Source: an uncultured Candidatus Saccharibacteria bacterium (GTDB lineage Bacteria; Patescibacteriota; WWE3; UBA101185; UBA10185). From it: 64,000 bases of DNA. The stretch spans positions 234,503 through 298,502 of the forward strand of contig CAZEBU010000001.1 in the NCBI GenBank assembly GCA_964510435.1, in the 5' to 3' direction. Below are positions 22,064 to 50,825 of the stretch, one piece after another (positions within the stretch are counted from its first letter, which is position 1; the number at the start of each line of letters is the position of its first letter). The translations under genes were made by a program, and so were the position numbers. The notes beneath the pieces are model-generated. The model ran no database searches. It had not been told where the DNA came from and saw nothing but the letters and a program-made list of their open reading frames with translations.

Positions 22064-22150
22064 GGAGGGTTGGCAGAGTGGTAATGCAGCGGCTTGCTAA
22101 GCCGTGACCGTTAATACGGTCCGTGGGTTCGAATCCCGCACCCTCCGCCA
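22064..22150 (+). tRNA. tRNA-Ser (anticodon GCT), class II with long variable arm
   Basis: Acceptor GGAGGGT/ACCCTCC, anticodon loop CTTGCTAAG, T-arm GTGGGTTCGAATCCCGC, encoded CCA. Confidence 0.85.
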
Positions 22151-22201
22151 TGATCACAGCCAAGTGTGTTTTATTTACGAATAAGCTATACTTAACCTAA
22201 T

Positions 22202-22795
22202 ATGAAGGTAACCGACCTAACCGATTTAATAGGTGTGACAAACACAAAAAAGGATCAGCCGGTAGCGCCGGAAGAAGCGGAGTTTAGACGGGAAAACCTT
22301 GGATCTAAATCGATCTACTTATCTTGGGAAGCCAAACCTAGCGCTCCAACTGCCTCTATTGATCCCAGATTTAAAAAGACCTTCTTAGTCATTGGTGCTG
22401 TCGTGGGCTTGGTTCTTATGGTTATGGGAGAAGTGTTTTTGCTCCTGGTGATTGCCAGCTTGGTTTTTATTACCTACGTATTATCAAATAACCCTTTGGA
22501 AAGTTTTAAGTACGAATTAAGCAGTCACGGACTGAGTGTGCATGGGAATCATTACTATTGGGACGAAATGGAAAGGTTTTTCTTTACTAAGCATTTTGGT
22601 AGCGAAAATCTAGCTGTTGATCTAAAAGAAGGATTACCTGCCAGGCTTATTATTGCTTTTAACCACAACGATAAGGAAAAGATCACCGAAAGCATGAATA
22701 AGCATCTTCCTTATTTGGAGGAGGAGCCCTTGAATTTTATGGATAAAGCGTATACAGGTATTTTAGGCAAGTTTGATTTCCAAAAGAAAAAATAG
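22202..22795 (+). CDS. Hypothetical protein with a central TM hairpin
   Basis: 197 aa. Hydrophobic segment FLVIGAVVGLVLMVMGEVFLLLVIASLVFITYVL. Confidence 0.45.
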   Translation: MKVTDLTDLIGVTNTKKDQPVAPEEAEFRRENLGSKSIYLSWEAKPSAPTASIDPRFKKTFLVIGAVVGLVLMVMGEVFLLLVIASLVFITYVLSNNPLESFKYELSSHGLSVHGNHYYWDEMERFFFTKHFGSENLAVDLKEGLPARLIIAFNHNDKEKITESMNKHLPYLEEEPLNFMDKAYTGILGKFDFQKKK

Positions 22796-22814
22796 TAGTC
22801 TCCCCATATATAAT

Positions 22815-22890
22815 GCACCCGTAGTTCAGTGGATAGAACGCAGCGTTGCGGACGCTGAGGTCGGGGGTTCAAATCCCTCCGGGTGCGCCA
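22815..22890 (+). tRNA. tRNA-Arg (anticodon read as GCG)
   Basis: Cloverleaf GCACCCG-TA-GTTCAGTGGATAGAAC-G-CAGCG-TTGCGGA-CGCTG-AGGTC-GGGGGTTCAAATCCCTC-CGGGTGC-G-CCA. A GCG anticodon is unusual for bacteria; ACG is more common. Confidence 0.75.
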
Positions 22891-22912
22891 AAGTTGTTAC
22901 ACAGGCTTATTT

Positions 22913-22989
22913 GGGCCGTTAGCTCAGTCGGCTAGAGCGTCGCATTCGCATTGCGGAGGTCGGGGGTTCGATTCCCCCACGGTCCACCA
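22913..22989 (+). tRNA. tRNA-Ala (anticodon CGC)
   Basis: Acceptor GGGCCGT with the G3:U70 identity pair. Anticodon loop TTCGCAT, T-arm GGGGGTTCGATTCCCCC, encoded CCA. Confidence 0.8.
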
Positions 22990-22997
22990 AGAATTTT

Positions 22998-23089
22998 GGA
23001 GGGGTGCGAGAGTGGTTTAATCGGCTGGTCTCGAAAACCAAGCGCTTGCGAGAGCAGGCACGAGGGTTCGAATCCCTCCCCCTCCGCCA
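22998..23089 (+). tRNA. tRNA-Ser (anticodon CGA), class II
   Basis: Acceptor GGAGGGG/CCCCTCC, anticodon loop CTCGAAA, long variable arm, T-arm GAGGGTTCGAATCCCTC, encoded CCA. Confidence 0.8.
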
Positions 23090-23221
23090 TGAAAAGTAGA
23101 TATTGTCTTGAGCTAACCACCTAGCTGTAAAAACCTTTACCTTCAGAGAACCCCATAGTATAATATTACACAACATTTCAAAATAACCGAGAAGAATAAA
23201 ACAAATCAAGAAGGAGGCGAC

Positions 23222-23680
23222 ATGCCTGTGTTCCCGCAATTTATTAGAAGGAGCGAGAGACTCTACGCGATTCTCGAGGAGTTTGTCGACAGTTTCTTAG
23301 GCAGCACTGTCGAGGAGATTCAGGAGGCACTGGACTATTACGCTGGCGAAGACTTTACAGGGGAGACGCCTAAGAAACCGGTTTACATACATGCTGAGAG
23401 CGTTTCCTACGATGAGGTGGAGGGTACAGTCACTGTGTCAGTCGATGGTCAGGAGTATGCCTCAAGGGACTTGGCACATGTCAAGCTGGATCTTTTTTAC
23501 GAAGACAAGCATATCACTAGATCCAGAAAATCCAGACTGTCTCTTTGGCATCGTAAGGGGGTGGAAGACAAGTATGAAGGTGAGGTAAGCTTCTACTACT
23601 GCGACGCGCAAGATGATGCTGGAAGGTTCATGCGAATCTGGTTCTCTGAAGGCGAAGCACCTCACTCCTTGATATCCTGA
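23222..23680 (+). CDS. Hypothetical protein (higher-GC islet gene 1)
   Basis: RBS AAGGAGG at -9. Own rho-independent terminator downstream. GC content is visibly higher than in the flanking genes. Confidence 0.5.
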   Translation: MPVFPQFIRRSERLYAILEEFVDSFLGSTVEEIQEALDYYAGEDFTGETPKKPVYIHAESVSYDEVEGTVTVSVDGQEYASRDLAHVKLDLFYEDKHITRSRKSRLSLWHRKGVEDKYEGEVSFYYCDAQDDAGRFMRIWFSEGEAPHSLIS

Positions 23681-23686
23681 AACAAA

Positions 23687-23727
23687 CCCCTCATTGGTAG
23701 ATTCTATTTGCCATGAGGGGCTTTTTA
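23687..23727 (+). terminator. Rho-independent terminator
   Basis: Stem CCCCTCAT/ATGAGGGG with a 18-nt loop, followed by CTTTTTAT. Confidence 0.5.
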
Positions 23728-23799
23728 TATTTGACCAGTGTTAAATCCTATAGTACAATTACCCAATCCTACAAATACCATCAACAAGAAAAGGAGAGG

Positions 23800-24201
23800 A
23801 TGATGGGTATGCAGTATTCGCGTACGTTTTCGGAGGAAGTTCGTCAGGCTCTTGATGAGCACGATCAGTTGGAAGCCGAGAAGGAAGCCGGTTTGGTGGC
23901 CGAAACGGCAGATTTGGACAGTCTGTATGAGGAGGTTTGGTGGCAAGAGTTTGTCAACCATTTCTATTGTGAAGACATCGAAGCTCTGAGGCGATCTGAA
24001 GCACAAGAGATCGAAGAGGCTTGGGAAGATCCTATGGCCCACGGATTCTACGATGACGATTCTTGGTACTGGGATCCGGTGGATTCGGTGGATTTGGACT
24101 CAGAACAACCAACTAGGTTCTCCAGGAGCATTATGGTGCGCAATGCGAAGAGGCTTTTTGAGGCTGTCGAACGCCGCCTTCGCACTCGTTTTATACAGTG
24201 A
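23800..24201 (+). CDS. Hypothetical acidic protein (higher-GC islet gene 2); the ORF track extends to 23713 but the RBS supports a start near 23800
   Basis: RBS AAGGAGAGG precedes ATGATGGGTATG. Trp/Asp/Glu-rich sequence. Own terminator downstream. Confidence 0.5.
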   Translation: MMGMQYSRTFSEEVRQALDEHDQLEAEKEAGLVAETADLDSLYEEVWWQEFVNHFYCEDIEALRRSEAQEIEEAWEDPMAHGFYDDDSWYWDPVDSVDLDSEQPTRFSRSIMVRNAKRLFEAVERRLRTRFIQ

Positions 24202-24240
24202 GCTAATTGAGCGTTCATCGCTCTTAGCTAACTCCTCTCG

Positions 24241-24286
24241 ACCCCCGCTATTTCTGGTTAGTGCCATTAGCGGGGGTTCTTTTTTC
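24241..24286 (+). terminator. Rho-independent terminator
   Basis: Stem CCCCCGCTA/TAGCGGGGG followed by TTCTTTTTTC. Confidence 0.6.
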
Positions 24287-24342
24287 GTGTTAGAATAGCC
24301 AACAAATAAATCATCCAAAGAAAAAATAGAAAGGAAGTTGAT

Positions 24343-25002
24343 ATGACCATCACATCGGCAAGAATCGCGCTTGATTTAGGTGATGATGTACGTGTTTCAC
24401 CGCCGGATTGGCCAAACAGCCAACTTAGTGTTAAGCCCGGAGATCTTTCAATGATCGCACCAAGCGGGGAAGGCATCTATGGCTATGAGGATAAGGAGGA
24501 GAGAAATTTCCTTCTGAGCGCACCCAGATTTGAGGCTTGCGGCGGAAGTTTTTATTTTGTCAACGGTGTTTCAAAAGCTGATTTTGAGGCTCTCATGAGG
24601 GTTTTGAGAATTGAACAACGTTTTGGAAAATCAGAGAAACCCTCCAAGGATCACGCTGTATTCGTCTATGAGTCAGCAGAGCCTGGCGAAGATGGGTATC
24701 TTGCCCAGTTGAGGATAGTCTCCAGGTTTGGACTTCAATTTATGTTTGGAGCACTCGCTGAAGGTGAGTACGAAAAGTTTCCTGAGCAAAAATTAACTAT
24801 GACGGAAACTTTCTGGTTGTTCATGGAACACGAACGCAATCGCTGGGGCACCGAGTTTTGGCACGACGGCAGAGGCCTGCGCGGTCTCTTTGGAGGTGAT
24901 GGAGACTTTGCACGTGAGGAGCTATCCTTTGGCTTCATGGTGGAGAACGACTACCACCAGATCTATCGTATCTGGTCTCGTGCGTGGCTAGTCACCAAGT
25001 AA
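24343..25002 (+). CDS. Hypothetical protein (higher-GC islet gene 3)
   Basis: RBS AAAGGAAG. 219 aa with no recognisable motifs. Own terminator downstream. Confidence 0.5.
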   Translation: MTITSARIALDLGDDVRVSPPDWPNSQLSVKPGDLSMIAPSGEGIYGYEDKEERNFLLSAPRFEACGGSFYFVNGVSKADFEALMRVLRIEQRFGKSEKPSKDHAVFVYESAEPGEDGYLAQLRIVSRFGLQFMFGALAEGEYEKFPEQKLTMTETFWLFMEHERNRWGTEFWHDGRGLRGLFGGDGDFAREELSFGFMVENDYHQIYRIWSRAWLVTK

Positions 25003-25038
25003 GCTGATTGAGTGCTCATTACTTTCAGCTAAGCATCG

Positions 25039-25088
25039 CCCTCGTTACATTTAGTAATATTCATTTGTAACGGGGGTTCTTTTTTTCC
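25039..25088 (+). terminator. Rho-independent terminator
   Basis: Stem CCCTCGTTACA/TGTAACGGGGG followed by TTCTTTTTTTCC. Confidence 0.6.
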
Positions 25089-25106
25089 AAAACTGATATT
25101 ATTTAC

Positions 25107-31549: not shown

Positions 31550-33114
31550 TATAAGGTTTTAGGCTGAGGTTTAACCTCAGCCAGATTCTCATAGATAAAC
31601 ACATCCGAGAGTGGTATCAGGTTGGGTTTTGGTAAGACAAACTGATTGATTAACATAAATTGTCTAGGATCAAGTATGGTCTCCTCGAATTCTTTCCATG
31701 TTTGGTAATAAAAAGGGTAAGTTTCTCGTACAACCTCTCTTTTATAGTTGCTTAACGGCCTGGAAGAAATAACTACATAAGAGTAGTGCTCAAGATTTTC
31801 CGGTGTCTGAAACTGGGCTCCTTCGCTGGAGTATACCGGCAGGGTAACCACTTTTGAAGTAACGAGCTTGTTCATGGGGTCCAAGCCCTCTTCACTGTAA
31901 ACTAAAACACTTTTTATGGGATCCAGGTTATCACGCATCCAAAGGTAGGCCGCAGATTTTGGAGTATATCTTTGGAACTGATGCAGAAGTAGCGTTGGGA
32001 AATATAAGTAGGAAGCAAGCAGAAGTATAGCTACGAATAACAAAACCAGACGGCTTTTTAATCTTTCCAACAAATAGTCCAGCCCAAAGGATGCATACAT
32101 GAGAACAATAGGTAGGATAGGCAGCAACCAGCGGTCAACCCTTCGGCTCTGCAAAGTAAAAAACACCAGATATATGATGACACTGCCTACCAAAAAAATA
32201 TGAAAGTCAAGATCAACCCGTTCTTTAAATGATTTGTATTTCCCGTAAAGAGAAGATAGTAAAACTAATGGTGTAGTTATAAACCCCAAACCAAATATAT
32301 ATTTGTAGACAGATAGATCAACCGAGTCAAAGACCAAACCGCCTTCCTTGGTGAACATGGATAGTATGCGAAAAGTAAATCTTTCCGACAAGATAAAGGA
32401 AAAAGGATTTGTCATCATGAAAACCCCCAAAGCCACAAGATTTAACGCCGCCAATCCTCGATAGTCTTTTTTCCTAATGTATGGGTAGTAAAAGAGAGGT
32501 AGGGTTATGAGGGTAGTAATTTTTGTACCAATAGCCAGTCCCAACAACGCGCCTGTAAGCAATGTAAACTTAGTATCCTCTTCCTTCCTGCGAAAATAGT
32601 AGAAAAGAGTTAAGTAAGATAAAGAGAGTACGATGGTTTGAATGAGATCAGCATTTATGTAATGTGCGTGCACGATCAGTTTCCAATTTAGGGCAACTAA
32701 TAATAGTGTCACAAAAAATACCAGCCACTTTTTTCTTAGCTTATAACTTAAAACGGCTGTAGATAGCACAATGAATATGGACAGCAGAGCATTAAAAGAC
32801 CTCATGAAAACGTAGAGGCTAGTTTTATCAAAGGGCAGGCTCAGCAGGTTACTTAATTTGCTGAAAGTCATGGTGGCCAGTGTAAATAGGTAAGCAGGAA
32901 AAGTGCCGTAAACAAAAGAAATGGGTATGAGTTGGTAATAATCATTATTTTTAATGATGTTTCGTATTTCGTAGGTATATCTAATGGCTAATTCAGCTAT
33001 TTCCGGTTCATCAGCGTAAAAGCTGTGGGGTAAGCCAAACTCAATGTGATACAGCCTGAAAAATAATCCCAAGGCTAGTATAAAGAGGACCAAAAATTTA
33101 TGCAGTTTGCTCAT
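31540..33114 (-). CDS. Polytopic membrane glycosyltransferase, GT-C fold (ArnT/PMT-like), second copy
   Basis: 524 aa with many TM helices and a C-terminal soluble domain. Similar architecture to the 25107..26633 gene. Confidence 0.5.
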
Positions 33115-34388
33115 TTTTCTAGTAGAATTTTTCTAGTTTCTTGTTTATAACTCTCTACGCTGGGCTGATCAAAAGCGTTTACTCCTAGCAAATGTCCCAA
33201 ATACATTATTTCTACCATTTTGAACTGCATGAACTGTCCAAGGGACTCCAGAGTAATATCATCCAGGATAACTTCTATGAAGGGAAGATCATTTTTTGCA
33301 AAGGCAATTTTTACACCTGCTAAAATGGCATCCATAATTTCTGAAGTACTTTTTTCTTCGATCTCGCTGAGAAGCTCTATGACAGGTTCTTGAGGTACGC
33401 TAATGTTGGCACCCGAATTTTTTGTAGAAATAAAAGTAAATAACTTATCCTTAATGCCCCCCAGATAAAGCTGTCCCATGGAGTGTAGATCCGTGGAGCC
33501 AATAGAGACGGTGGGGGTAATTCCTTTGCCGTCTTTGCCGATACTCTCACCCATAAGCTGTCTGTACCACTTGCCCAGAGATTCCAGTTCGGGGTGGAAA
33601 AAGAAATTGTCGTTGATCAGCTTGCCTTTGACGTAGTTTTCGAAAATTATGATGGCTGATAGAGCGGAGGGGTTCTTTGAGACGGTTTTATTTAAACAGA
33701 CTCTACGGGCTTCCATGGCGCCTTTAAGGAGTTCGGAGAGGTCAATACCCAAACATGCTAAAGGGAAAAGCCCTACGCTGGAAAAAACTGAGAATCTCCC
33801 GCCTACCTTGTTGGGTACCGGCAAGCAATCCAGATTTAAGCTGCGAGCAGTCTTCCAAAGGTCTGAGTTATAAGATGTAGTAATAACCAGCCTATCTTTG
33901 GCAAAAGGAATACCGCTGGAAATTATTTCCAAGTTAACGAGGGTCTCTGTGGTTTTTCCTGATTTGCTGATGGTGTTAATGATGATTTCCTCGGGGCTTT
34001 TGATGTTCTTTTTAATAAACTTGTAGAGTTTGTAAATGTAGGTTGGATCGTTGGTATCCGCAAAGATCATTTTGGGGTATCTGTCCGGCTCAATAAGATC
34101 AAAATAGCCATAGAGAGCATCGTAAATAGCTTTCGTGCCTAGGTTAGAACCACCGATGCCTATATCCAGGACATATTTTAAGTTGCTATTTACGTATTTT
34201 GACTTAAGCTTATGGATTTTTTCGAGAATGCTCTCATCAAAGGGAAGATTTATAGAACTCTCCTCATACATGTAATTATCAGCCTCTGCCACCTTGGTCA
34301 AGCGTTTGATGTATTCCTCAAGATGCTGTGCTTGCGCGGCTACCTCGTCCTTGGTGACATGAGAGCTATCTTCGTATCTGAACAACAT
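33111..34388 (-). CDS. pgi: Glucose-6-phosphate isomerase
   Basis: DIGIGGSNLG, SKSGKTTETL and GGRFSVFSSVG motifs are characteristic of PGI. Confidence 0.8.
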   Translation of the reverse strand: MLFRYEDSSHVTKDEVAAQAQHLEEYIKRLTKVAEADNYMYEESSINLPFDESILEKIHKLKSKYVNSNLKYVLDIGIGGSNLGTKAIYDALYGYFDLIEPDRYPKMIFADTNDPTYIYKLYKFIKKNIKSPEEIIINTISKSGKTTETLVNLEIISSGIPFAKDRLVITTSYNSDLWKTARSLNLDCLPVPNKVGGRFSVFSSVGLFPLACLGIDLSELLKGAMEARRVCLNKTVSKNPSALSAIIIFENYVKGKLINDNFFFHPELESLGKWYRQLMGESIGKDGKGITPTVSIGSTDLHSMGQLYLGGIKDKLFTFISTKNSGANISVPQEPVIELLSEIEEKSTSEIMDAILAGVKIAFAKNDLPFIEVILDDITLESLGQFMQFKMVEIMYLGHLLGVNAFDQPSVESYKQETRKILLEK

Positions 34389-38620: not shown

Positions 38621-39814
38621 TTACCTACTTATAGTACCACTTTTACATATTTTAGCGTATTCATAAAATGACGGTCTAGGCTTTCTTTGTAGGTTATTCT
38701 CCCTGTCAATCTCTACCAAACCGAAACGGGGGCGGTAACCCTCCGCCCATTCATAATTGTCAATGAGAGACCAGTGGAAGTAGCCTTTTAAGTCAACTCC
38801 CTTATCTCTAGCCTGGGCGCAGCTTTTTAGTATCCCCCTGAGGTACCAGGTTCTATATTTGTCTTGTGCATCCGCCAGTCCGTTTTCGGTGATATAAATG
38901 GGGATCTGGTATCTTTTTAAGTCTAAAAGCACTTTTTTGATGCCTTTTGTTTCCAACCACCAACCTAAGTCGGAAATCTTATCGTTGGGGTTTTGGATCC
39001 TCAAATTTTTAAGTTTATTCGAAAAATAGTAGTTTAAGCCAAGGAAATCAAGCTCATCTTTAATTGGTTTTAAGAAAAAGTCATTATTTAAAAAACGCAG
39101 AATACCGGAGGCTACCTTGTCCAAAGGGTTTTTGCTACTGGAGGAAGGTTCGTACCAGGCGATATTTTTTACCAAACCTACAGGGTAATTAGCCACCTCT
39201 TTTATAGCCAAGTAGGCTTTTTGGTGAGCCCGGCGCATATTTTTTTGCACCAAAAGAACTTTGAAAGGATTGTGGCTTTGAGGTACCCAGCGTGCTAGTA
39301 AAAAAGCAAGCAGGGAATAGACCTGGGGCTCATTAACGGTGATGTAGAAATCGATCATATCTCTAAATTCCTCGGCACATTTTTTAGTGTACTTGGCAAA
39401 GTGATTAGTGACCTTTGGATTAACCCAGCCGCCCATATCCGCTATCCAAACTGGGTTTGTAAAGTGGTGCAAAGTAACAAAGGTCTTTAACCCGCGATCT
39501 TTAGCTGCCTGTAGAACCTTTTTATAGTGTGCCAGCTCTTTTTGGTCGAATTTCCCCGGTTCCGGTTCAAGACGAGCCCACTCCAGACCGATACGTATGG
39601 CGTTGTTGTTAAGTTCTACGGCTAGATCAAAATCTTCTTCGAATCTGCGGTAAGAATCACAGGCTAGCAAGGATGGTTCCAGAGGCCACTTACCCTTGTT
39701 TTTATTTCTGTGCTCCCATGCCCACCAGTCACTTTTTTTATTATTGCCCTCAATTTGGTAGGCAGAGGTGGCCGTACCCCACAAAAAGTCTTTAGGGAAT
39801 TGATAAGACTTCAT
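38621..39814 (-). CDS. Glycoside hydrolase family 1 beta-glucosidase
   Basis: FPKDFLWGTATSAYQIEG N-terminal signature. TLHHFTNPVW, VNEPQV (acid/base) and YITENG (nucleophile) motifs. Confidence 0.9.
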   Translation of the reverse strand: MKSYQFPKDFLWGTATSAYQIEGNNKKSDWWAWEHRNKNKGKWPLEPSLLACDSYRRFEEDFDLAVELNNNAIRIGLEWARLEPEPGKFDQKELAHYKKVLQAAKDRGLKTFVTLHHFTNPVWIADMGGWVNPKVTNHFAKYTKKCAEEFRDMIDFYITVNEPQVYSLLAFLLARWVPQSHNPFKVLLVQKNMRRAHQKAYLAIKEVANYPVGLVKNIAWYEPSSSSKNPLDKVASGILRFLNNDFFLKPIKDELDFLGLNYYFSNKLKNLRIQNPNDKISDLGWWLETKGIKKVLLDLKRYQIPIYITENGLADAQDKYRTWYLRGILKSCAQARDKGVDLKGYFHWSLIDNYEWAEGYRPRFGLVEIDRENNLQRKPRPSFYEYAKICKSGTISR

Positions 39815-41248: not shown

Positions 41249-42622
41249 TTAGAACAAGAAAAAGTAACTGGCAAAACTCGCGCCTATGATAAGAAGCATG
41301 GAAACAAAGAATTTGCGTGAGAACTCCTTTTTAGCTTGAAAAAAGGCATAGAGAGACTTGCTTAAAAGATTAGCAGCGTTGACAAAAAGGAAAACAAACA
41401 AGGCAGATTCGGGAGTTATAGTTTTCTCTGCTAACTCGGCAAGGTTGATCACTACCGCATCTATTCCTGTGAGGGAAGCCATAACGGAGGTAATCAAAAA
41501 TCCTGATTGCCCAAATATAATCAAGGCTGATTTTGTTAAGGCTCTAATGAAAACCAGCAGCAAGGCAAACTTTATGGCTGGTTTGAGGGAGAATATTTTC
41601 TGATCCTCTTTCTCCTCTTTTGGCACCACTTCCTCCGGAGTTTGATGTATTTCCGAGACTACTTTTGTTTTCTTGTGATCGGTAAAGTAGAAAAATAACC
41701 CAATCAGCAGGGAAGGAATAATAATGGCAAGTAAAGTTGGCGTAATAAATACTAACCACTTGGTGTTCAAAGAGGCTACCAGTATAAAGACTTGGAAGAA
41801 ACTGGTTAAGTTAGCAAAGATAGCTGCGGAAACCAGAGTGTTTATTTTCGAGGATCTTTTGCTTTTTTGCGCCAAGGAAATAGTAGTGGATGTAGAAGAG
41901 ATAAAGCCGCCCACAGAACTGATGAGTACGATACTCTTTTTATCTCCGGTAATTTTTTTCAAAGTGTGCCCAAAGATATTTATTCCCGTGATGATAGCTA
42001 CAATGAACCACAGCCTAAAAGGATTGATCAGCTCTAGTTGTTCGAAAAAGTGAAGGTTGGCATTATAAGCTTCTAAAACAGCCCGTATTGAGGGGATGTC
42101 GGTCAGGTGGTAGGCTTGATTTGGCAAGAAGGGCAGGATGACCAGCGCAATAATAGCAAAACCTATGAAAGCGTCAATTTCGGTGCGTTTTATACCCAAA
42201 ATAAGGTTATGACTCTTTTCTTTCACCGAAAGTATCAACTGAATAACAATAGTAATGGCTATGACCAGCTGAACAGGAAAGATTTCCGAAGTGACAAAAT
42301 ATCCAACCAAAAATGAAAATATGCCGCCTAGCTCTGTAGTTAATCCCATGGATTTTATCATCCAGCCCCCCAAACCATAGTAGATAAAGATGAGTATGAA
42401 AAAGGAAACGGTAATGATTATAGAGAGATAGATATTTCCGTACAAGCTTAATAGTCCGGCAACAGCCCCCAGTAAGGAGATAAGAGAATAAGTCCTTAAA
42501 CCCCACATGTCTCCGGATTCCTTACGGGTTTCAGTATCGGTGGCGGATTCTCGTTCTAAACCTATGAGGCCGCCAAGCACAATGGCCAACAGAAGTTTAA
42601 GAGGCAGTGTTAAAGCTTCCAT
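41249..42622 (-). CDS. MgtC-family N-terminal domain fused to DUF4010-like polytopic membrane domain
   Basis: N-terminal LGGLIGLERE signature of MgtC/SapB. About 12 TM helices. Confidence 0.55.
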   Translation of the reverse strand: MEALTLPLKLLLAIVLGGLIGLERESATDTETRKESGDMWGLRTYSLISLLGAVAGLLSLYGNIYLSIIITVSFFILIFIYYGLGGWMIKSMGLTTELGGIFSFLVGYFVTSEIFPVQLVIAITIVIQLILSVKEKSHNLILGIKRTEIDAFIGFAIIALVILPFLPNQAYHLTDIPSIRAVLEAYNANLHFFEQLELINPFRLWFIVAIITGINIFGHTLKKITGDKKSIVLISSVGGFISSTSTTISLAQKSKRSSKINTLVSAAIFANLTSFFQVFILVASLNTKWLVFITPTLLAIIIPSLLIGLFFYFTDHKKTKVVSEIHQTPEEVVPKEEKEDQKIFSLKPAIKFALLLVFIRALTKSALIIFGQSGFLITSVMASLTGIDAVVINLAELAEKTITPESALFVFLFVNAANLLSKSLYAFFQAKKEFSRKFFVSMLLIIGASFASYFFLF

Positions 42623-42663
42623 TAACTAACTATAAAAAAGTATTACTCTTTTGTCTATGAAAG

Positions 42664-44049
42664 TTAATTTACCAAGTTGCTTACAGCGTTAACCAACTCC
42701 TGATAATTAAAGTACCTGTAGAGCTCATCCCGCCAGTTGACTGATGTGATGTTTACCATTGGGTCAACGCCCTTCCCTTCTATAGGTACGCCGTCTTCTC
42801 TTAAGGTTAAACTATGTACTAAAAGCACCGAATAAGTTTCGTTTTCCGGATCCAGCTGGTTATTGAGTTTAAAGACACTTTCTACGCTGCCCCAGCCCTT
42901 GGTAGGCTCACCGACAACAACACCCACATTATATTTTTTAAGCACAGAAGCAAAAACCTCCGCAGAAGATTGAGCCTCTCCGTCTATTAATATAACCACT
43001 TTCTTATATCTTATTAAGCTAGTCATCCAGCCTGTTTTGGTAGTAAAGTCCTCTTTTTCTCCTCTGCTGAAAAATTGATAGGCGTATTGATTGGGGCCAA
43101 TAAAAGGGCCTAAGAAATAAGGCAGTCCGTCAATTGCACCTCCAATGTTTCCTCTAAGATCAATGATAAGTGTATCGAGTTCATTTCCTTGATCCACTTT
43201 GTCCATGACACGCTGTAATTCTTCAACCGTGGTGGGTGAAAATTTGGTGATGTGAATGTAGAAAATCCTTGGTGAAATAAGTCTATTTTCTATGGTGGGG
43301 TCAACGCCTAACTCGTCGTAGACGTTTTTATTTCCGGAGTCTCCCAAAACCTCAAAGGCTTTTTCCAGCACAACTTTTTCTTGCTTGACTTCCGGCGTCT
43401 GTTCTTTCTGATTTAATTCCGCAACTTTATTTTGATAGGCAAGTGCCACCGCCTCAATGGATGCTTCTTTCTCTACCTCAAGGGAATCGTAATGGTTTAC
43501 GTTAGGATTTATGTTCTTTACCGTATCGGCAAGCTCTTTTTGTTTTTTTGAATTGTAAAGTCTACTCCTTCCAAAAGGTTCCAGGTTGGCTAGTATAATA
43601 TCGGATAGCTGAACCGTAAATTCTTTCTTTTCTTCCTCCGTCATATCCCTCATAGTTTCTTTAAGAAGTGTCCCAAGTGCGTCTCTCGTAGCGGGAGCCG
43701 CGGGAATTGCTTCCTCTGTTAGTTTCTCTATGGCTAATTTTGCTACATTTCCTAACTGCTCGTCGCTGAGGTTGTTCCAGTGCTTGTTTTTAATGAGATC
43801 ATAAATTTCGAAGAAAAAAGCAGTGTATTTATCATCATCTACCGTTCTTGTTCCGGCAATATCATCAAAAATGGAACTGTCCGGAAGAACATCCTCCCAC
43901 TTATTACCAAGAGGAGACTCCCTTCCCATTACGGTAATAACGGTAATGGTCAAAACAGCGATAATAGTAATGATCTGCTTTCTCTTGAGTTCGATCTTTT
44001 TTATGTTTAGCTTAGGAATACTAAATTTAAATTTAGGCAAACGTTTCAT
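42664..44049 (-). CDS. C-terminal processing (S41, tail-specific) peptidase, membrane anchored
   Basis: GGAIDGLPYFLGPF and DGEAQSSAEVFA (Ser nucleophile region) motifs. N-terminal TM helix. Confidence 0.7.
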   Translation of the reverse strand: MKRLPKFKFSIPKLNIKKIELKRKQIITIIAVLTITVITVMGRESPLGNKWEDVLPDSSIFDDIAGTRTVDDDKYTAFFFEIYDLIKNKHWNNLSDEQLGNVAKLAIEKLTEEAIPAAPATRDALGTLLKETMRDMTEEEKKEFTVQLSDIILANLEPFGRSRLYNSKKQKELADTVKNINPNVNHYDSLEVEKEASIEAVALAYQNKVAELNQKEQTPEVKQEKVVLEKAFEVLGDSGNKNVYDELGVDPTIENRLISPRIFYIHITKFSPTTVEELQRVMDKVDQGNELDTLIIDLRGNIGGAIDGLPYFLGPFIGPNQYAYQFFSRGEKEDFTTKTGWMTSLIRYKKVVILIDGEAQSSAEVFASVLKKYNVGVVVGEPTKGWGSVESVFKLNNQLDPENETYSVLLVHSLTLREDGVPIEGKGVDPMVNITSVNWRDELYRYFNYQELVNAVSNLVN

Positions 44050-44112
44050 ATCTTAAATAATATAACACACATGTTGTAACGGAAATAATAAAAGGCTAAG
44101 ATGTTTTACTAC

Positions 44113-44445
44113 TTAGAATCTAGTCAACGTAATAAGGACAAGCGTTACAAAAAAGAACAACCACACCGCGGTGTAAGTTACTAATCTTATGGCACTTTGC
44201 GTATCTTTGTGGTCCCAAAAGAGAATTATTGGATATCCAAAAGCCAGCAAGGCACAAATAAGTACTGATGCTACAAGAAGCGCCAAAAATAATAAAGGCC
44301 CAAGGAAAGTTCTTATTGGACCAAAGAACTCGCTACTTATCCAGATCAGGAAACCTACCAAGCTGCAATAAAGAAAGATCCCAAAAGCTTGTAAGAATCC
44401 AAGAAAAGTTAGAGAAAACCTCGACAATTTTTTAAAAGGAATCAT
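44113..44445 (-). CDS. Small polytopic membrane protein
   Basis: 110 aa with 3–4 TM helices. Confidence 0.4.
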   Translation of the reverse strand: MIPFKKLSRFSLTFLGFLQAFGIFLYCSLVGFLIWISSEFFGPIRTFLGPLLFLALLVASVLICALLAFGYPIILFWDHKDTQSAIRLVTYTAVWLFFFVTLVLITLTRF

Positions 44446-44473
44446 CTTGATTAGATTATATCACTTTAGGAAC

Positions 44474-44974
44474 TTAAAAATTAACCGTATCGCCTACACC
44501 GGTACCGTTTTCTATTGACCATCCGCCGTTTACCTCTAAAACATACATCACAGGATACTTTGAACTGTAAGAGAGACAGGGACTTTCCAAGCAGGGCAGC
44601 GCGCTGTGTTCTATGTGGACTATTTTTTTATCTTTGTTAACCCAGATGATATCCAGGGGGATTTTGGTATTCTTCATCCAGAAGGAACGGCGAGATTCGT
44701 TATCGAAAATAAAAAGCATGCCATCATTTTGTGCGAGGTTTCTTCGAAACATCAAACCCAAAGAGCGCTCTTTGTTGTTGACGGCCACCTCTGCATTAAT
44801 AGTCGTGTTGTTTATTTGCACCGGTATTTTGTTTTCATCATTACTTTTAGTGAGGGACAGATAGGCTATAAGTAAGATAACGGCAAGAAAAAATGCATGT
44901 GCAGCCTTAAATTCGTATTTTGGCCTCTTTTTTGTTCGAAAGGATACCAGTTTTCTTAACTTTGAAAAACACAT
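44474..44974 (-). CDS. DUF192 (COG1430) family protein with N-terminal anchor
   Basis: LGLMFR...GMLFIF...FWMKNTKIPLDIIW pattern typical of DUF192. Confidence 0.55.
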   Translation of the reverse strand: MCFSKLRKLVSFRTKKRPKYEFKAAHAFFLAVILLIAYLSLTKSNDENKIPVQINNTTINAEVAVNNKERSLGLMFRRNLAQNDGMLFIFDNESRRSFWMKNTKIPLDIIWVNKDKKIVHIEHSALPCLESPCLSYSSKYPVMYVLEVNGGWSIENGTGVGDTVNF

Positions 44975-45418: not shown

Positions 45419-45667
45419 TTAGGCAAGAAAAACCTCATCACCGTCTCTGACTTTTTCCGCAACCTTTATACCCACCTCCTGGCCCTTTTTAGCCTTTTCA
45501 ATATCTTTGCGGTCGTATTGCATTTGGGCAACTTCTTGCTCCACGTCTGTAGTGTGGCCGACAATTTTGATAGTATCACCCACTTTTAAATCAGCACCTA
45601 GTTTGATAATGCCTACTCCGAGATCTGTATAATAATGTGTTATTTCGCCTATCTTTTTATCTGGCAT
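45419..45667 (-). CDS. Small beta-barrel protein resembling EF-Tu domain 2
   Basis: 82 aa. The GDTIKIVG...GQEVGIKV pattern recalls translation-factor beta-barrel domains. Confidence 0.35.
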   Translation of the reverse strand: MPDKKIGEITHYYTDLGVGIIKLGADLKVGDTIKIVGHTTDVEQEVAQMQYDRKDIEKAKKGQEVGIKVAEKVRDGDEVFLA

Positions 45668-45734: not shown

Positions 45735-45772
45735 AAAAAAGGGCACCGCCTGATTGGTTATCAGTGGTGCCC
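45735..45772 (-). terminator. Rho-independent terminator for the FBP aldolase/phosphatase gene
   Basis: Stem GGGCACC...GGTGCCC. On the minus strand it is followed by TTTTTT. Confidence 0.55.
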
Positions 45773-45801
45773 AGGTGGGCTAGGTGTGAATTTGCATTTT
45801 G

Positions 45802-46914
45802 CTACTCCTCGACCCTGAACTCAGCATCAAGATCCTTCATGGTTTTCTTGAAAGCGCTGTACTCAAGTTCGTCGAAAGGGAGCATAGCTGCGCCCACAAA
45901 GCCCTGCTCACGCATGTAGTCTCCCTTGCGCTGTGCTTTGAGTCTAGTGGCATCCCAAACCGGATTCCCGAACATGTCTACGGGATTGGAAAGTATGCCA
46001 GCTTGGTTAACGGAGTAGGCTAAGCAGGAGACAATGGGTAGGCAATACGAGCCGGTTACCGGTGTACTTATAGCCACAGGCATAACAGGCATGTGGTGGC
46101 TTCCTCGGGCATCGCCTGCTGTGTAATGAGCAGTTGTCCAAGGGCTGACCACTTCTTCGGGAGCAGGGAAGAACTTTTGCACCCGAACAATAGCCACGGG
46201 GTCATCTTTTCCCTTGTACTCCCCGGCAATACTATGAAGTCTGTCGGTTGAGATGGAAACTACCTGTTGTTTTGGGTAGGTGTTGGAGTGGATAGCCTTG
46301 ATGCCAAATTTGTTCTCATCTCTAAGAAGGAAAGCCAGCTCCACGGCCTTGACCTTTCCGTTGAGGACAATCACTCTATCCTTTCCGACATGGTCCATGT
46401 CAATTACCGTAAAGGTGAATCCGGAGAGCATATTCGGGAGCATTAACCCCGCGCAGTACATGGGGTTGGTGAAGACATTCCAGAATGGAAAGTTGAAGAC
46501 ACCAGGACCACACTTATCGGCCGCAAATACTAAGAAGGGTTCGGATTCCCTTTCCTCGGCCTTTTCATCAAAAGTGATCTCGGCGACACCAGGCCCGGCA
46601 CCACGCACATTTCCTGAGGGAGCGTCGACAAGAAGATCCTGACCAGCACCGTATAGACCATCTTTCTTTGCCTCATCCGTGGCTGCTTCAAAAATCCTCC
46701 AGGCTAGCTGGTGAATGTCTTCGTTTAGATCACCATATCTGTGGGACATCAGAAGGCACAGATCATCACCGGTGAACGTCACCCGATGATCGATGAACTC
46801 TGACATCTGCGCATCCTCAAGCATCTCAGAAGCTACTTCGAGCATTCTGTCAGAGGGGCGGGTATGGCCTCCAATGCTACCCACGTCGGCCTTGATGCAA
46901 CTAATTGTAAGCAT
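45802..46914 (-). CDS. Bifunctional fructose-1,6-bisphosphate aldolase/phosphatase (class V FBPase, archaeal-type)
   Basis: N-terminal ISCIKADVGSIGGH motif characteristic of this family. Visibly higher GC than the neighbouring genes. Confidence 0.8.
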   Translation of the reverse strand: MLTISCIKADVGSIGGHTRPSDRMLEVASEMLEDAQMSEFIDHRVTFTGDDLCLLMSHRYGDLNEDIHQLAWRIFEAATDEAKKDGLYGAGQDLLVDAPSGNVRGAGPGVAEITFDEKAEERESEPFLVFAADKCGPGVFNFPFWNVFTNPMYCAGLMLPNMLSGFTFTVIDMDHVGKDRVIVLNGKVKAVELAFLLRDENKFGIKAIHSNTYPKQQVVSISTDRLHSIAGEYKGKDDPVAIVRVQKFFPAPEEVVSPWTTAHYTAGDARGSHHMPVMPVAISTPVTGSYCLPIVSCLAYSVNQAGILSNPVDMFGNPVWDATRLKAQRKGDYMREQGFVGAAMLPFDELEYSAFKKTMKDLDAEFRVEE

Positions 46915-47004
46915 GCTTTTCTCCTTTTCTAATACGTTAACGGATATTTATTTGTCAATATTGCTATAACTAAGATTGGCAAAAAGGAGTATATCAAAAA
47001 AATC

Positions 47005-47784
47005 TCAGGAACGCTTGGACACCAGTATTTTCAATAAGAATAAGAAGAAGATCCCTCCAATGATTGTTTTTACATTTTTGTGGGCAAGTATATCTTCAAG
47101 GTTTTTTAAAAGAATACTTTCTCTTGATATCTTCTCATCTCTACGTATGACCTCTTCTGACGTACCTGCGATCTCTGCTGTTCCCATAACCGTATCCAAT
47201 AATATTGAGTATTCGATTTCTAGTTTAGGGGGAATATTGGTATTACTCGAAAGGAATATTTTTTGGTAACCGGAATTTTTAGCACCTTCCAACTGAAAAC
47301 CAAAAATAACGTTTTTATTATTTGTCCATTCTTGCACTAGATCGGTAAGATTAAACCTGGTGTAACCTTGCAAATCTTCGGCAGCCGTAGGGAATTTATT
47401 ACCGATCGTTTTTGGCCGAGTATTCCAAGTAACTGTAGATTGTTCCCAATCCTCTTGCAGCAACATGGCGCTGAAAGGAACGTCTTTGTCGTCGGATTCT
47501 GGTTTCAAGGCGAGTACAAGGTTAGCCGACTCTATTTTAGCGAGATCCGGTATTTCGGAGAGGTCAAAATCAAGAAAGGTTATGTGTTGCGTACCGCTTC
47601 CTTCGGTATAAGATACGCGAAGGACAGCCAGACTACCTGTAGTTTGATCAGAGTAGCGGTTGGTTAGGGAGACCTCCTTTGTAGGGTTTAGGATTAGAGA
47701 TCCCTCTGCGAATATAGTACGGTAGGAGGTTATGGTTATGAACAGAAAGTAAAATATTACAGTGTAGATTGCTTTTTTTGACAC
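47005..47784 (-). CDS. Secreted hypothetical protein
   Basis: N-terminal signal peptide. Predicted beta-rich. Confidence 0.45.
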   Translation of the reverse strand: MSKKAIYTVIFYFLFITITSYRTIFAEGSLILNPTKEVSLTNRYSDQTTGSLAVLRVSYTEGSGTQHITFLDFDLSEIPDLAKIESANLVLALKPESDDKDVPFSAMLLQEDWEQSTVTWNTRPKTIGNKFPTAAEDLQGYTRFNLTDLVQEWTNNKNVIFGFQLEGAKNSGYQKIFLSSNTNIPPKLEIEYSILLDTVMGTAEIAGTSEEVIRRDEKISRESILLKNLEDILAHKNVKTIIGGIFFLFLLKILVSKRS

Positions 47785-49970: not shown

Positions 49971-50825
49971 GTGGCTAATCCGATGCAAGACCCAGAAAAG
50001 GAGAGATTCATGACCGAACACGTTTTGGATGTTCATATCCCCAACATCACCGCATACAGTGAAGATTGGGAGGCGAACGACTGGAAAGGAATGCCCTATG
50101 CGGCATTCGAAAAACTGGCGAGGATGTTTCCTGCACCTTGTCAGGAGCTGTATGTTCTGAAGGAGGATGATAGCGGTACGATTAAGACACTACTCATCCG
50201 ACGCCCGGAGTCAGACAAGCATTATGGACTCATGTGGCACAATCCTGGAACAGCGCACCGCTCCACGGATGGTGTCACATTGACCTCGTCACAGAATGTG
50301 GAGGCTATGAGGGCACTTCCAAGGAATGTGTTGTTGGCTGAGCTAGCGAAATCCACATGTGCATTGACCCCTCGTGACAAGGGTCTTCACAGGGTTTTGA
50401 GCGGCGCTGGCATTAGGTTTAGTTCTGAGGATGCCTTTGAGGCACTTGAGAACCAGATCCAGTACGCCGGCCTGACACCATTGGAGCTCACACCTCGTGG
50501 TATCGAGAACGCAGAACTCAACGTGTTGTTCCTTTCTCCCAAGCAAGCGGACAGCATAGAAATTGAGTACAGCGTTCCTGAGGATGAGAGTGAAGAGCCT
50601 GTGCCCGTCACGGGTTGGTTTGATGTCACAGAGCTTTACGACATGGCGCAGAGGGGTGAGTTTATTCAGCATCAGGTGAATCGCTTTGCCATGATGATGG
50701 ACTCCCTTCGAGCCACGTCAGACAACGAGCACCTACCCGTTCTTCGTCGAATCGAACCCCTCAGCTTGCAGGAGCTGCTTGATCAACTTGGGATCGACGA
50801 ATCGGAATTGTCCAAGCCTGTTTAG
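49971..50825 (+). CDS. Hypothetical protein (higher GC) with strong downstream terminator
   Basis: 284 aa, acidic. Terminator at 50861..50900. Confidence 0.5.
   Translation: MANPMQDPEKERFMTEHVLDVHIPNITAYSEDWEANDWKGMPYAAFEKLARMFPAPCQELYVLKEDDSGTIKTLLIRRPESDKHYGLMWHNPGTAHRSTDGVTLTSSQNVEAMRALPRNVLLAELAKSTCALTPRDKGLHRVLSGAGIRFSSEDAFEALENQIQYAGLTPLELTPRGIENAELNVLFLSPKQADSIEIEYSVPEDESEEPVPVTGWFDVTELYDMAQRGEFIQHQVNRFAMMMDSLRATSDNEHLPVLRRIEPLSLQELLDQLGIDESELSKPV

Follow-up and report, generated by a model that had tools for sequence, protein, structure and literature searches.

How did a fructose-1,6-bisphosphatase (FBPase) gene with a GC content far above that of its surroundings come to reside in the genome of a WWE3 bacterium? 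The gene lies on the minus strand at positions 45802..46914 of the 64,000-nucleotide stretch of DNA that was analyzed (hereafter ‘the window’, which also contains bacterial tmRNA and SmpB), and a preliminary description had read it as encoding an ‘archaeal-type’ bifunctional enzyme whose elevated GC content pointed to horizontal acquisition. [quoted passage not shown] The host was assigned to candidate division WWE3 of the Patescibacteria (Candidate Phyla Radiation, CPR) through its ValRS, whose 120 best matches carry, if named, almost exclusively WWE3 or Patescibacteria labels, and the tmRNA and SmpB mark it as bacterial.

The assignment of the protein to the class V FBPase/aldolase family, already made in the preliminary description, was confirmed. 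The 370-residue product (N-terminus MLTISCIKADVGSIGGH) matches the Pfam profile PF01950 (FBPase_3) over essentially its full length (profile positions 2-360 of 361; E=4.5e-130; 434.5 bits, against a cut-off of 25), and the PDB entries 3t2b, 3r1m and 1umg are sequence matches with E values of about 1e-69. When an AF2 model of the protein (pLDDT 79.8, pTM 0.86) was submitted to Foldseek, the best seven matches were all FBPA/P entries (TM 0.79-0.82, E<=3e-29), the next match having an E value of 5e-3. At near-invariant columns (at least 97% conserved among 180 homologues) the protein agrees in 80 of 81 cases, the sole departure being a conservative substitution of R by K. Residues D10, H17, D50, D51, Q92, D93, D133, K134, Y233, K236, D237, D238 and Y352 all fall within such columns, and D10, H17, D50/D51, Q92, D133 and K134 are, following the structural papers, presumably ligands of metal or phosphate. 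The catalytic motif is intact, with Y233-K-G-K236-D237-D238 aligned to Y229-V-G-K232-D233-D234 of the Thermoproteus neutrophilus enzyme, where we take K232 to be the Schiff-base lysine (an assignment that reportedly goes back to Du et al. and Fushinobu et al., both of 2011); PDB entry 3t2g is a Y229F variant at the column aligned to Y233. Finally, Y352 (in E-L-E-Y-S) is aligned to the tyrosine of E-M-E-Y-T in 3r1m and 1umg; the C-terminal catalytic tyrosine of ST0318 (Tyr347/348) is required for both activities, and PMC8740755 describes Tyr347 as important.

A protein of this family need not have kept both activities. The Coxiella burnetii protein CinF (Cbu0513), a bacterial member of 382 residues that is ~39% identical to ST0318, acts as a secreted effector and has protein phosphatase but no FBP phosphatase activity (PMC8740755), which demonstrates that a PF01950 member can lose the latter and yet retain the C-terminal catalytic tyrosine. 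A similar change of function in the window protein, or its reduction to a phosphatase only, could be read into its score of 420.4 bits against the NCBIfam equivalog model NF041126 (FBP_aldo_phos), which lies under the cut-off of 520. However, sub-threshold scores are common to every sequence of the bacterial clade that was tested (WWE3, 380-413 bits; Anaerolineae, 428; Gemmatimonadota, 444; other Patescibacteria, 430), and a Bathyarchaeota protein, included as an archaeal control, was the only one among those tested to pass (524.7 bits). The retention of the near-invariant residues, the acidic metal ligands and the Lys/Tyr motif of the Schiff base among them, also argues against such a change, as does the sugar-phosphate context of the gene in relatives, where FBPase lies beside 6-phosphogluconolactonase-like or G6PD/PGM/enolase genes, and the host is not known as an intracellular pathogen with secreted effectors. 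A changed function appears quite improbable, and the protein is filed here under PF01950 and outside NF041126, with a bifunctionality that is predicted from its sequence. To our knowledge, no protein of the bacterial FBPA/P subclade has been assayed.

[quoted passage not shown] The likely next step, judged from pathway knowledge, is catalyzed by the phosphoglucose isomerase (PGI) that is encoded nearby on the minus strand (33111..34388; PF00342, E=1.2e-18), which would pass F6P to glucose-6-phosphate for the synthesis of sugar nucleotides and envelope glycans or for the pentose-phosphate pathway. The presence of pgi and glycosidase genes in the vicinity had been correctly noted; the latter are represented by a GH1 glycosidase at 38621-39814.

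The gene appears to be transcribed alone, as it possesses both its own ribosome-binding site (AAGGAG at 46926-46921, 6 nucleotides ahead of the ATG) and its own terminator. The latter, also anticipated in the preliminary description, is an intrinsic-terminator-like hairpin on the minus strand (GGGCACC...GGUGCCC followed by a U tract; 45735..45772), located 30 nucleotides past the stop codon, for which RNA folding gave -20.2 kcal/mol and z=-3.59, with none of 200 shuffled sequences as stable; a simple consensus terminator scan missed it because its inner stem-loop is long. The 5' intergenic spacer (46915..47004, minus strand), as read from the sequence, harbors the AAGGAG element and a TTGACA hexamer (46958-46953) but no convincing -10 element, and a putative promoter may lie within it; a consensus scan of this spacer returned no promoter compatible with the start codon.

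Upstream of the gene lies a CBM96-domain protein (47005..47784; Pfam, with tblastn and ORF maps of the relatives' loci L021 and L006), and downstream an 82-residue stand-alone ORF resembling the beta-barrel domain 2 of EF-Tu (45419..45667; weak matches to Pfam GTP_EFTU_D2 and to EF-Tu domain 2 in the PDB), hereafter the ‘small ORF’. Beyond it follow a DUF192 gene (44474-44974), a 110-residue membrane ORF (44113-44445), an S41 peptidase/DnaJ gene (42664-44049) and an MgtC/DUF4010 gene (41249-42622), all, like the two nearer neighbours, on the minus strand (Pfam and gene maps of L003-L006). This downstream block (41249..44974) is common to the window and the related locus L003, and in L005 only its DUF192 and 110-residue ORF part is found. 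Pfam detected neither integrase nor transposase domains within 10 kb on either side of the FBPA/P gene, no phage-family match was obtained for the six unannotated ORFs closest to it, and no direct repeats above chance flank the gene.

The elevated GC content is real. The gene has a GC of 0.510, versus a mean of 0.413 (sd 0.037) for the 53 ORFs of the window, among which it ranks second, and a GC3 of 0.555 versus 0.417 (rank third); merely 0.09% of all 1113-bp segments across the 64 kb reach 0.510, every one of them overlapping the gene, and its 1-kb flanks have a GC of 0.369 and 0.395. This observation, together with the terminator, invites the interpretation that the gene was recently transferred from archaea or a GC-rich donor and still bears an un-ameliorated donor signature, and both the patchy occurrence of the gene in WWE3 and the high GC of donor-type FBPase genes in Anaerolineae and Chloroflexota (GC 0.58-0.64, GC3 0.67-0.83) would be in keeping with it. 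The makeup of the excess argues otherwise. With host codon usage, the amino acid sequence predicts a GC of 0.459, as compared with the 0.510 observed and the host mean of 0.413; about half of the excess is due to amino acid composition (the protein is rich in Gly, Ala, Pro and Arg and poor in Lys, Asn and Ile) and about half to codons ending in C (C3 0.345 vs 0.221; G3 0.185 vs 0.171). Codon choices are host-like and not donor-like: 9 of 16 Arg codons are still AGR, NCG codons are rare, and by Karlin codon distance the gene lies closer to host genes (0.37) than to Anaerolineae FBPase genes (0.57). It is the preference for C-ending codons that is the lineage-specific part of the excess; the orthologous genes in L003 and L005 have a GC3 at host level, without any excess, and a second WWE3 lineage also displays one (L012, 0.52 vs 0.31 in its flanks). 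Two other sources of the excess were considered: a mosaic or recombinant origin is ruled out, GC3 being high over the full length of the gene, and the usual translational selection is unsupported, L25 (the sole ribosomal protein gene in the window) having a GC3 of 0.36.

The history of the locus in related genomes bears on the age of the gene. FBPA/P orthologues (P0002 and P0003) are found in two related WWE3 contigs, and all three pairwise identities among them and the window protein are 76%. Their loci have in common with the window the small ORF and the DUF192, 110-residue ORF, S41/DnaJ, MgtC/DUF4010, GH1 and CBM96 genes; the flanking proteins (42-74% identical between window and L003) are about equally diverged across all three genomes, and FBPase divergence parallels flank divergence in all three pairs. 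The four-fold sites of the FBPase orthologues are saturated (0.252 identical vs 0.251 expected), and the three proteins form one clade in neighbour-joining trees (bootstrap 96-100%). Syntenic orthologues, co-diverged flanks and saturated four-fold sites together indicate that the gene was already there when these lineages diverged; the saturation further implies that the GC3 excess cannot have persisted from any transfer that predates the split, and the monophyly of the three sequences argues against later replacement.

Thus, synteny and the saturation of synonymous sites leave no room for a recent import, and neither recent nor archaeal acquisition is supported; with an identity of only ~40% to archaeal enzymes and no mobile-element genes or repeats beyond chance nearby, recent transfer is very improbable and may be regarded as largely refuted. 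When the gene is held against the usual marks of an ‘alien’ gene, its composition is indeed atypical, but its codons are not donor-like, it does not branch within any foreign subgroup, and it has syntenic orthologues, so that overall it does not fit that profile. The preliminary description had read acquisition from the GC excess, which these results do not bear out, and had named vertical descent within the host lineage and a uniform composition as grounds for refutation: the former is observed, so that half of the refutation holds, and the latter is not.

Residence of this kind has not been permanent everywhere. The gene is absent from L018, L021 and L017, which marks it as an accessory gene that has been lost repeatedly. 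The most informative case is L018, which, compared with L005 (small ORF 95% identical, DNA 85% identical), lacks a ~1.35-kb FBPase segment only, with a C+T5 microhomology at the deletion junction inside ~35-bp similar terminator regions; in L021 the CBM96 homologue directly adjoins the small ORF. RAAC2, the first complete WWE3 genome, is likewise reported to be without an FBPase (PMC3812714).

Such a clean presence or absence of one gene between similar terminator regions might also be produced by a mobile one-gene cassette passing between WWE3 relatives, in which case the copies in the window, L003, L005 and L012 would be independent insertions beside the small ORF. The gene orders do differ (CBM96/FBPase/small ORF in the window; small ORF/FBPase/membrane ORF in L005; small ORF/membrane fragment/FBPase in L003; divergent in L012), which amounts to three or four positions and orientations of FBPase relative to the small ORF, and a gene-own terminator is present in L005 as well as in the window, where it is joined by the gene's own ribosome-binding site. 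Since the placement of FBPase to one or the other side of the small ORF varies among the window, L005 and L003, purely vertical descent needs local rearrangements. However, a mobile cassette does not account for an FBPase divergence equal to that of the flanks in all three pairs, nor for the host-level GC3 of the L005 and L003 genes; no recombinase is seen, the upstream spacers of the FBPase loci do not align and no conserved cassette ends were found among them, and four independent landings by the same gene need a site-specific mechanism of which there is no sign. Such a cassette is unlikely; we favor the view that FBPA/P was at this locus before the split from the two sampled relatives and would then have been deleted in other close relatives.

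Where the WWE3 gene originally came from is a separate matter. The best named matches of the window protein are from Gemmatimonadota, Anaerolineae and Chloroflexota (66-70% identity), as compared with 40% for the Bathyarchaeota protein, and a 4-residue insertion and a GDARGSHHMP motif are common to the window protein and these bacterial matches and missing from archaeal sequences; by sequence, the protein is a member of a large bacterial subclade. The family as a whole comprises at least 7689 clusters of homologues (90% identity, E<=1e-10) and is abundant in uncultivated bacteria. The label ‘archaeal-type’ is therefore apt for the history of the family and misleading for this member of it.

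Because the enzyme is patchy in WWE3 and in CPR bacteria, a much older transfer between phyla may have brought it into WWE3: a donor of Chloroflexota/Gemmatimonadota type would have passed it to an ancestor from which much of WWE3 descends, with vertical descent and frequent loss thereafter. This idea is compatible with the old residence advocated above, and would specify the origin of the gene. It would explain why the FBPase is 66-70% identical to proteins from other phyla, whereas the named sequences among the best 120 matches of ValRS (50-72% identity) are almost all from WWE3 or Patescibacteria, with one probably mis-binned exception. It also agrees with the lack of the gene in the reference WWE3 genome and with the polyphyly of CPR FBPases (P0260, from another Patescibacteria bacterium, is 42% identical and sits on a far-off branch), and the presence of the small ORF beside FBPase in the WWE3 lineage of P0247 fits a single WWE3 origin. 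On the other hand, WWE3 FBPases do not fall inside the ‘crown’ group of sampled non-CPR sequences but branch off outside it, so that no donor lineage is identified, although these are neighbour-joining trees in which the position of WWE3 relative to the ‘crown’ and to the second WWE3 lineage shifts with sampling. Identity to the ‘crown’ varies little (0.60-0.70) and singles out no subgroup, and the enzyme is so conserved (Anaerolineae and Gemmatimonadota FBPases are 78% identical to each other) that high identity across phyla is weak evidence for transfer. A sister grouping of the two WWE3 lineages received 67% in one neighbour-joining tree and was not recovered in another, and four-group site patterns, which comprise few sites, do not favor it. 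We would give an ancient transfer somewhat less than an even chance, deep inheritance being the alternative source of the WWE3 gene. A search of the literature for FBPA/P in CPR or Patescibacteria returned nothing specific.

The small ORF, which served as a synteny marker, adjoins FBPase in every WWE3 FBPase locus seen, with homologues (59-65% identity) in L003/L004, L005/L006 and L012/L013/L015. It was undetected in the flanks of FBPase loci from Gemmatimonadales, Anaerolineae/Chloroflexota, Acidobacteria and other Patescibacteria (three of these contigs measure 2-3.5 kb). A general functional coupling of the two genes was ruled out: FBPase occurs in 1 of 80 metagenome loci of the small ORF (42 of them at least 5 kb long), namely that of the L012 organism. 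Within WWE3, the adjacency is kept in tandem (in both orders) and in divergent arrangement, across FBPases that are only 60% identical and with differing other neighbours. It could reflect a functional partnership beyond inherited synteny, in which the small protein would regulate the enzyme, assist its assembly or be a co-expressed partner, but we think this improbable.

The central carbon metabolism of CPR/Patescibacteria is patchy, and with a one-enzyme, one-way route from triose phosphates to F6P some WWE3 lineages would possess a gluconeogenic capacity deleted in sister lineages, which is of use for the metabolic reconstruction of symbiont-like bacteria. For the practice of annotation there is a caution, in that the most GC-rich gene in a window can be an old resident. 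Neither point alters the current understanding of the enzyme family.

Among characterized systems, those closest to the window protein are the archaeal enzymes of T. neutrophilus (PDB 3T2B-3T2G) and Sulfolobus/Sulfurisphaera tokodaii (ST0318; 1UMG, 3R1M), which belong to the same Pfam family, have the same fold and align over the full length. The motifs Tyr-x-x-Lys-Asp-Asp, KADVG...GH, GDD, GAGQD, ADK and the C-terminal EY(S/T) are all conserved, in spite of an identity of only 37-40%. The differences include the 4-residue insertion, which follows the ‘ITFD’ strand, the sequence GWMRGSH(A/Y)GP that the archaeal enzymes possess instead of GDARGSHHMP, and an 11-residue insertion in the Thermoproteus enzyme that the window protein lacks; moreover, the archaeal hosts are thermophiles, whereas the host here is a WWE3 bacterium. 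As for CinF, compared here by its published description, nothing at the window gene suggests a similar effector role.

The bacterial FBPase_3 proteins of Anaerolineae/Chloroflexota and Gemmatimonadota (such as P0024, P0012 and P0077) are of the same length, with the same insertions and motifs; they are named ‘fructose 1,6-bisphosphatase’ (NCBI) or ‘aldolase/phosphatase’ (JGI) and are uncharacterised. Unlike the window gene, theirs have the high GC3 values given above, lie in unrelated contexts and are not accompanied by the small ORF. The second WWE3 lineage (the P0247 cluster, including MBT6401532.1, ‘candidate division WWE3 bacterium’) resembles the window in its adjoining small ORF and in an FBPase far GC-richer than its flanks, but its protein is only 60-61% identical to that of the window (a similarity that does not exceed that of either one to the non-CPR group), and its context is a different one (UvrA, a 6-phosphogluconolactonase-like gene, PBP and UvrB). 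Finally, the same net step from triose phosphates to F6P is accomplished by the classical pair of a class II FBP aldolase, which is reported for most CPR bacteria (PMC7304191), and a class I/II (Fbp/GlpX) FBPase; that pair consists of two separate enzymes with unrelated folds and a reversible aldolase step, in contrast to the one-way FBPA/P.

The ORF at 45802..46914 on the minus strand, a position that the preliminary description had given exactly, encodes an FBP aldolase/phosphatase (FBPA/P; here 'FBPase') of 370 amino acids, with the N-terminus MLTISCIKADVGSIGGH. A ribosome-binding site (AAGGAG) lies 6 nt 5' of its ATG, and ~30 nt past its stop comes a hairpin, GGGCACC ... GGUGCCC around an inner stem of 5 bp, and then a U run. 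RNA folding gave that hairpin an energy of -20.2 kcal/mol (z = -3.6, with 0 of 200 shuffles as stable), which upholds the earlier proposal that the gene has its own terminator; a simple terminator scan did not pick it up, because its inner stem-loop is long. The gene is intact and apparently monocistronic. Two overlapping opposite-strand ORFs, 45799-46023 (+; 74 aa) and 46280-46642 (+; 120 aa), are shadow ORFs of a GC-rich coding region, not genes.

The original assignment to the class V FBPase/aldolases proved sound. The protein matches Pfam PF01950 (FBPase_3) from end to end (E = 4.5e-130), and the only solved structures matched by its sequence are FBPA/Ps, from Thermoproteus neutrophilus (3T2B-G) and Sulfolobus tokodaii (1UMG and 3R1M), at E ~1e-69 and ~40% identity. 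A PDB search with an AlphaFold model (30 homologues as input; pLDDT 79.8, pTM 0.86) returned the same FBPA/P structures only (TM 0.79-0.82), the next match having E = 5e-3. The catalytic motif is intact: in Y233-K-G-K236-D237-D238 the protein keeps the equivalents of Y229/K232/D233/D234 in the Thermoproteus enzyme, whose Y229F variant (3T2G) differs at precisely the Y233-aligned column, and the C-terminal tyrosine reported to be essential in ST0318 (PMC8740755) has its aligned counterpart in Y352. The protein agrees with its homologues at 80 of the 81 columns that are at least 97% conserved in 180 sequences (at the remaining one it has K for R, a conservative change); as a PF01950 enzyme it retains every catalytic residue. 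The two loops of lowest confidence in the model span residues 97-105 and 228-234, the latter carrying Y233 and adjoining K236. Loop remodelling in the solved FBPA/Ps is reportedly described by Du et al. 2011 and Fushinobu et al. 2011, and the low confidence of the modelled Y233 loop would fit such a process.

The host is a WWE3 bacterium. The window carries tRNAs and a bacterial tmRNA (19510-19902) with SmpB (18958-19434) directly upstream, the predicted tag peptide being ADEYAYQPAYAYA. Its valyl-tRNA synthetase (123-2408) was compared with its 120 top-scoring homologues, of which the named ones are labelled 'candidate division WWE3' or 'Patescibacteria group' at 72% down to 50% identity; one odd match amid them (P0242, 55%), on a 6.4-kb contig labelled 'Niabella sp.' (Bacteroidota), probably reflects a binning error in the source. 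Many window ORFs lack a Pfam domain, as is usual in CPR genomes; three large ones, 10559-13786 (-), 13814-15247 (+) and 15260-18892 (+), of 1075, 477 and 1210 aa, had none at E<=1e-3, and the largest has an unusually high GC2 (0.46).

The closest proteins to the window FBPase, at 76%, are two related WWE3 enzymes, P0002 (contigs L005/L006) and P0003 (L003/L004), whose genes lie in the same neighbourhood: a small EF-Tu-domain-2-like ORF, DUF192, a membrane ORF of 90-110 aa, an S41/DnaJ peptidase, MgtC/DUF4010, GH1 and CBM96. The three FBPases are equidistant (76/76/76%) and came out as monophyletic each time they were analysed (bootstrap 96-100%), while the flanking proteins of the window and L003 share 42-74% identity, the other two pairs being similarly distant. 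Where a conserved residue has a four-fold degenerate codon, the third base agrees between the window gene and that of L003 at a frequency of 0.252, against a composition expectation of 0.251; synonymous sites are completely saturated. Therefore, the gene was resident in this neighbourhood before these lineages split, which by neutral change was very long ago. The horizontal acquisition that had been suggested for it is not supported in a recent or archaeal form, given the old synteny, the saturated four-fold sites and the ~40% identity to archaeal enzymes.

The elevated GC content behind that suggestion is itself genuine: 0.510 against an ORF mean of 0.413 (rank 2 of 53 window ORFs), with GC3 at 0.555 against 0.417. 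The gene is the most GC-rich 1.1-kb stretch in the 64 kb (0.510 is attained by only 0.09% of segments of this length, every one overlapping it), and its 1-kb flanks stand at 0.37 and 0.40. When its own amino acids are encoded with average host codon usage, however, the expected GC is already 0.459 (GC3 0.424), so that the protein accounts for roughly half of the 0.097 excess (G+A+P+R 26.5% versus 20.8%; K+N+I+F+Y+M 25.4% versus 31.1%) and synonymous choice for the other half. The latter involves mainly C-ending codons (C3 0.345 versus 0.221; G3 0.185 versus 0.171), with TTC, TAC, GTC, TCC, ACC, GCC and CCC raised and AAG and GAG likewise; 9 of 16 arginines are still AGR, and NCG and CTG codons are rare. 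A mosaic gene was ruled out, GC3 being raised over its entire length. The codon bias exceeds sampling noise (0.378 versus 0.242 +/- 0.03 in simulations). The Karlin codon distance is smaller to window genes (0.37) than to Anaerolineae/Chloroflexota FBPase genes (0.57).

GC3 is not raised in the syntenic orthologues (L003, 0.479 versus ~0.48 in its flanks; L005, 0.419 versus ~0.39), and since sites have become saturated since the split, the excess in the window gene cannot be a leftover donor signature. Other window ORFs, at 49971-50825 and 23222-25002, are similarly GC-rich or nearly so. The ORF at 49971-50825 (+), which has no Pfam match, has the top ORF GC in the window (0.517; GC3 0.575, with G3 and C3 both up), and its 66%-identical orthologue at L003:2112-2885 is GC-rich too (0.552), so that GC heterogeneity among genes is a standing, long-kept property of these genomes. 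Ordinary translational selection is not evident, since L25, the sole ribosomal protein gene in the window, has a low GC3 (0.36). At 22064-25100, four tRNA genes (Ser-gct, Arg-gcg, Ala-cgc and Ser-cga) precede three ORFs for acidic proteins (23222-23680, 23713-24201 and 24343-25002; GC 0.48-0.49), without Pfam or PHROG matches; two near-identical terminator-like 18-mers are located at 24268 and 25068. This region may be a small island beside tRNA genes. The conspicuous GC content of the FBPase is not evidence of import.

The small ORF, a stand-alone beta-barrel of 82-85 aa (window 45419-45667 (-); L003:9443-9700; L005:477-728; L012:9652-9903), served as the query of a metagenome search that yielded 80 loci, of which three (L018, L021 and L017) are relatives without FBPase. 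L018 and L005 share 95% identity in the small ORF and 85% DNA identity over it and its upstream region. In L005 the order is small ORF, FBPase, membrane ORF and 229-aa ORF (-); L018 has the same order minus FBPase, L021 likewise with CBM96 in front, and L017 also lacks the gene. L005 and L018 differ by one ~1.35-kb segment containing FBPase, spacer and terminator (L005:792-2145 versus L018:1029-1077), and the L018 junction switches from left to right L005 sequence inside a C+T5 microhomology within two mutually similar ~35-bp terminator regions. Insertion in the L005 lineage would produce the same difference, but deletion from L018 is the simpler reading, because the L005 FBPase branches deeply and its GC3 is at the host level. 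FBPase is also reported absent from the complete WWE3 genome RAAC2 (PMC3812714). In WWE3, then, this is an old accessory gene, lost repeatedly.

A second WWE3 lineage is represented by P0247, the 50%-identity representative nearest the window protein (61%), whose cluster includes MBT6401532.1 ('candidate division WWE3 bacterium'). Its locus context differs (UvrA, a 6-phosphogluconolactonase-like gene, PBP, UvrB, LexA, PGM and enolase), yet the small ORF directly adjoins FBPase there also, in divergent orientation. The FBPase of this lineage (L012:10001-11149) is a stronger compositional outlier than that of the window (GC3 0.522 versus ~0.31 in its flanks; Arg CGN 16 versus AGR 1); it adjoins the PF01182 6-phosphogluconolactonase-like gene, and PGM and enolase lie no more than 10 kb away.

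The small ORF family is widespread, matching metagenome sequences at least 494 times, for the most part on contigs with ~40% GC. It lies next to FBPase in every WWE3 FBPase locus, which a functional link between the two would explain; an FBPase lies near it, however, in only 1 of the 80 loci found via the small protein (that of the L012 organism), and it was not detected in the flanks of Gemmatimonadales, Anaerolineae/Chloroflexota, Acidobacteria and another Patescibacteria FBPase loci, three of them only 2-3.5 kb long. A functional link is therefore a minority possibility, and the adjacency, as a synteny marker, is best read as marking a single origin of the WWE3 FBPase locus. That the two lineages are sisters is only weakly supported: 67% in one neighbour-joining tree, successive branching below the sampled non-CPR bacteria in a larger data set (53% and 85%), and very few informative site patterns. 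CPR FBPases are polyphyletic, since P0260 (42% identity), of a different Patescibacteria member, is placed far off in the trees. Vertical descent holds for the syntenic clade of the window gene with P0002 and P0003, while deeper WWE3 placement varies with sampling. An ancient transfer into WWE3 from another phylum is plausible, if tentative.

By analogy with the archaeal enzymes, the protein would condense DHAP and GAP via a lysine Schiff base and then, with that active site remodelled, hydrolyse FBP to F6P there too, which would make for a one-way gluconeogenic step. The pgi and glycosidase genes originally noted nearby are indeed present (PGI, 33111-34388; GH1, 38621-39814), and PGI could conceivably carry F6P on to G6P. 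Possible consumers, also encoded in the window, are a ManC-like nucleotidyl transferase and GT87/PMT-type glycosyltransferases. Sugar-phosphate genes lie adjacent to or near FBPase in relatives (G6PD in L003; 6-phosphogluconolactonase-like genes in L012 and L098), and a link to these neighbours is conjectural.

The finding is real, correctly identified and ordinary, a further member of a known enzyme family whose presence in WWE3 is already on record in database annotation; more informative are the age and repeated loss of the gene, and a GC content that is no sign of import. The textbook view (PMC12965863) restricts the family to archaea and a small number of deep-branching bacteria, of which the preliminary description called it typical, but it comprises at least 7689 clusters at 90% identity (E <= 1e-10; 806 clusters at 50% identity, E <= 1e-3), and the nearest named relatives are bacterial. 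Named matches at 66-70% are all Gemmatimonadota, Anaerolineae/Chloroflexota or 'bacterium HR33', and species-representative genomes with close relatives belong to Anaerolineaceae, Chloroflexota, Anaerolineales and Caldilineales, with one Acidobacteria genome (56%). The window protein scores 420 bits against NCBIfam equivalog NF041126 (cut-off 520); all bacterial-clade sequences tested also fall below (380-444), whereas a Bathyarchaeota protein passes (525), and the shortfall is therefore a trait of the whole bacterial subclade rather than of this gene. The protein is accordingly filed as a PF01950 member, its conserved residues suggesting bifunctionality.

The window protein shares with those bacteria a 4-residue insertion and the motif GDARGSHHMP, which archaeal sequences lack, and the Bathyarchaeota protein is only 40% identical to it; 'archaeal-type' thus survives as a historical label for the family and fails as a description of this enzyme. 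Coxiella CinF, of the same family, has turned into a protein phosphatase that lacks FBPase activity (PMC8740755), a caution against reading activity from family membership.
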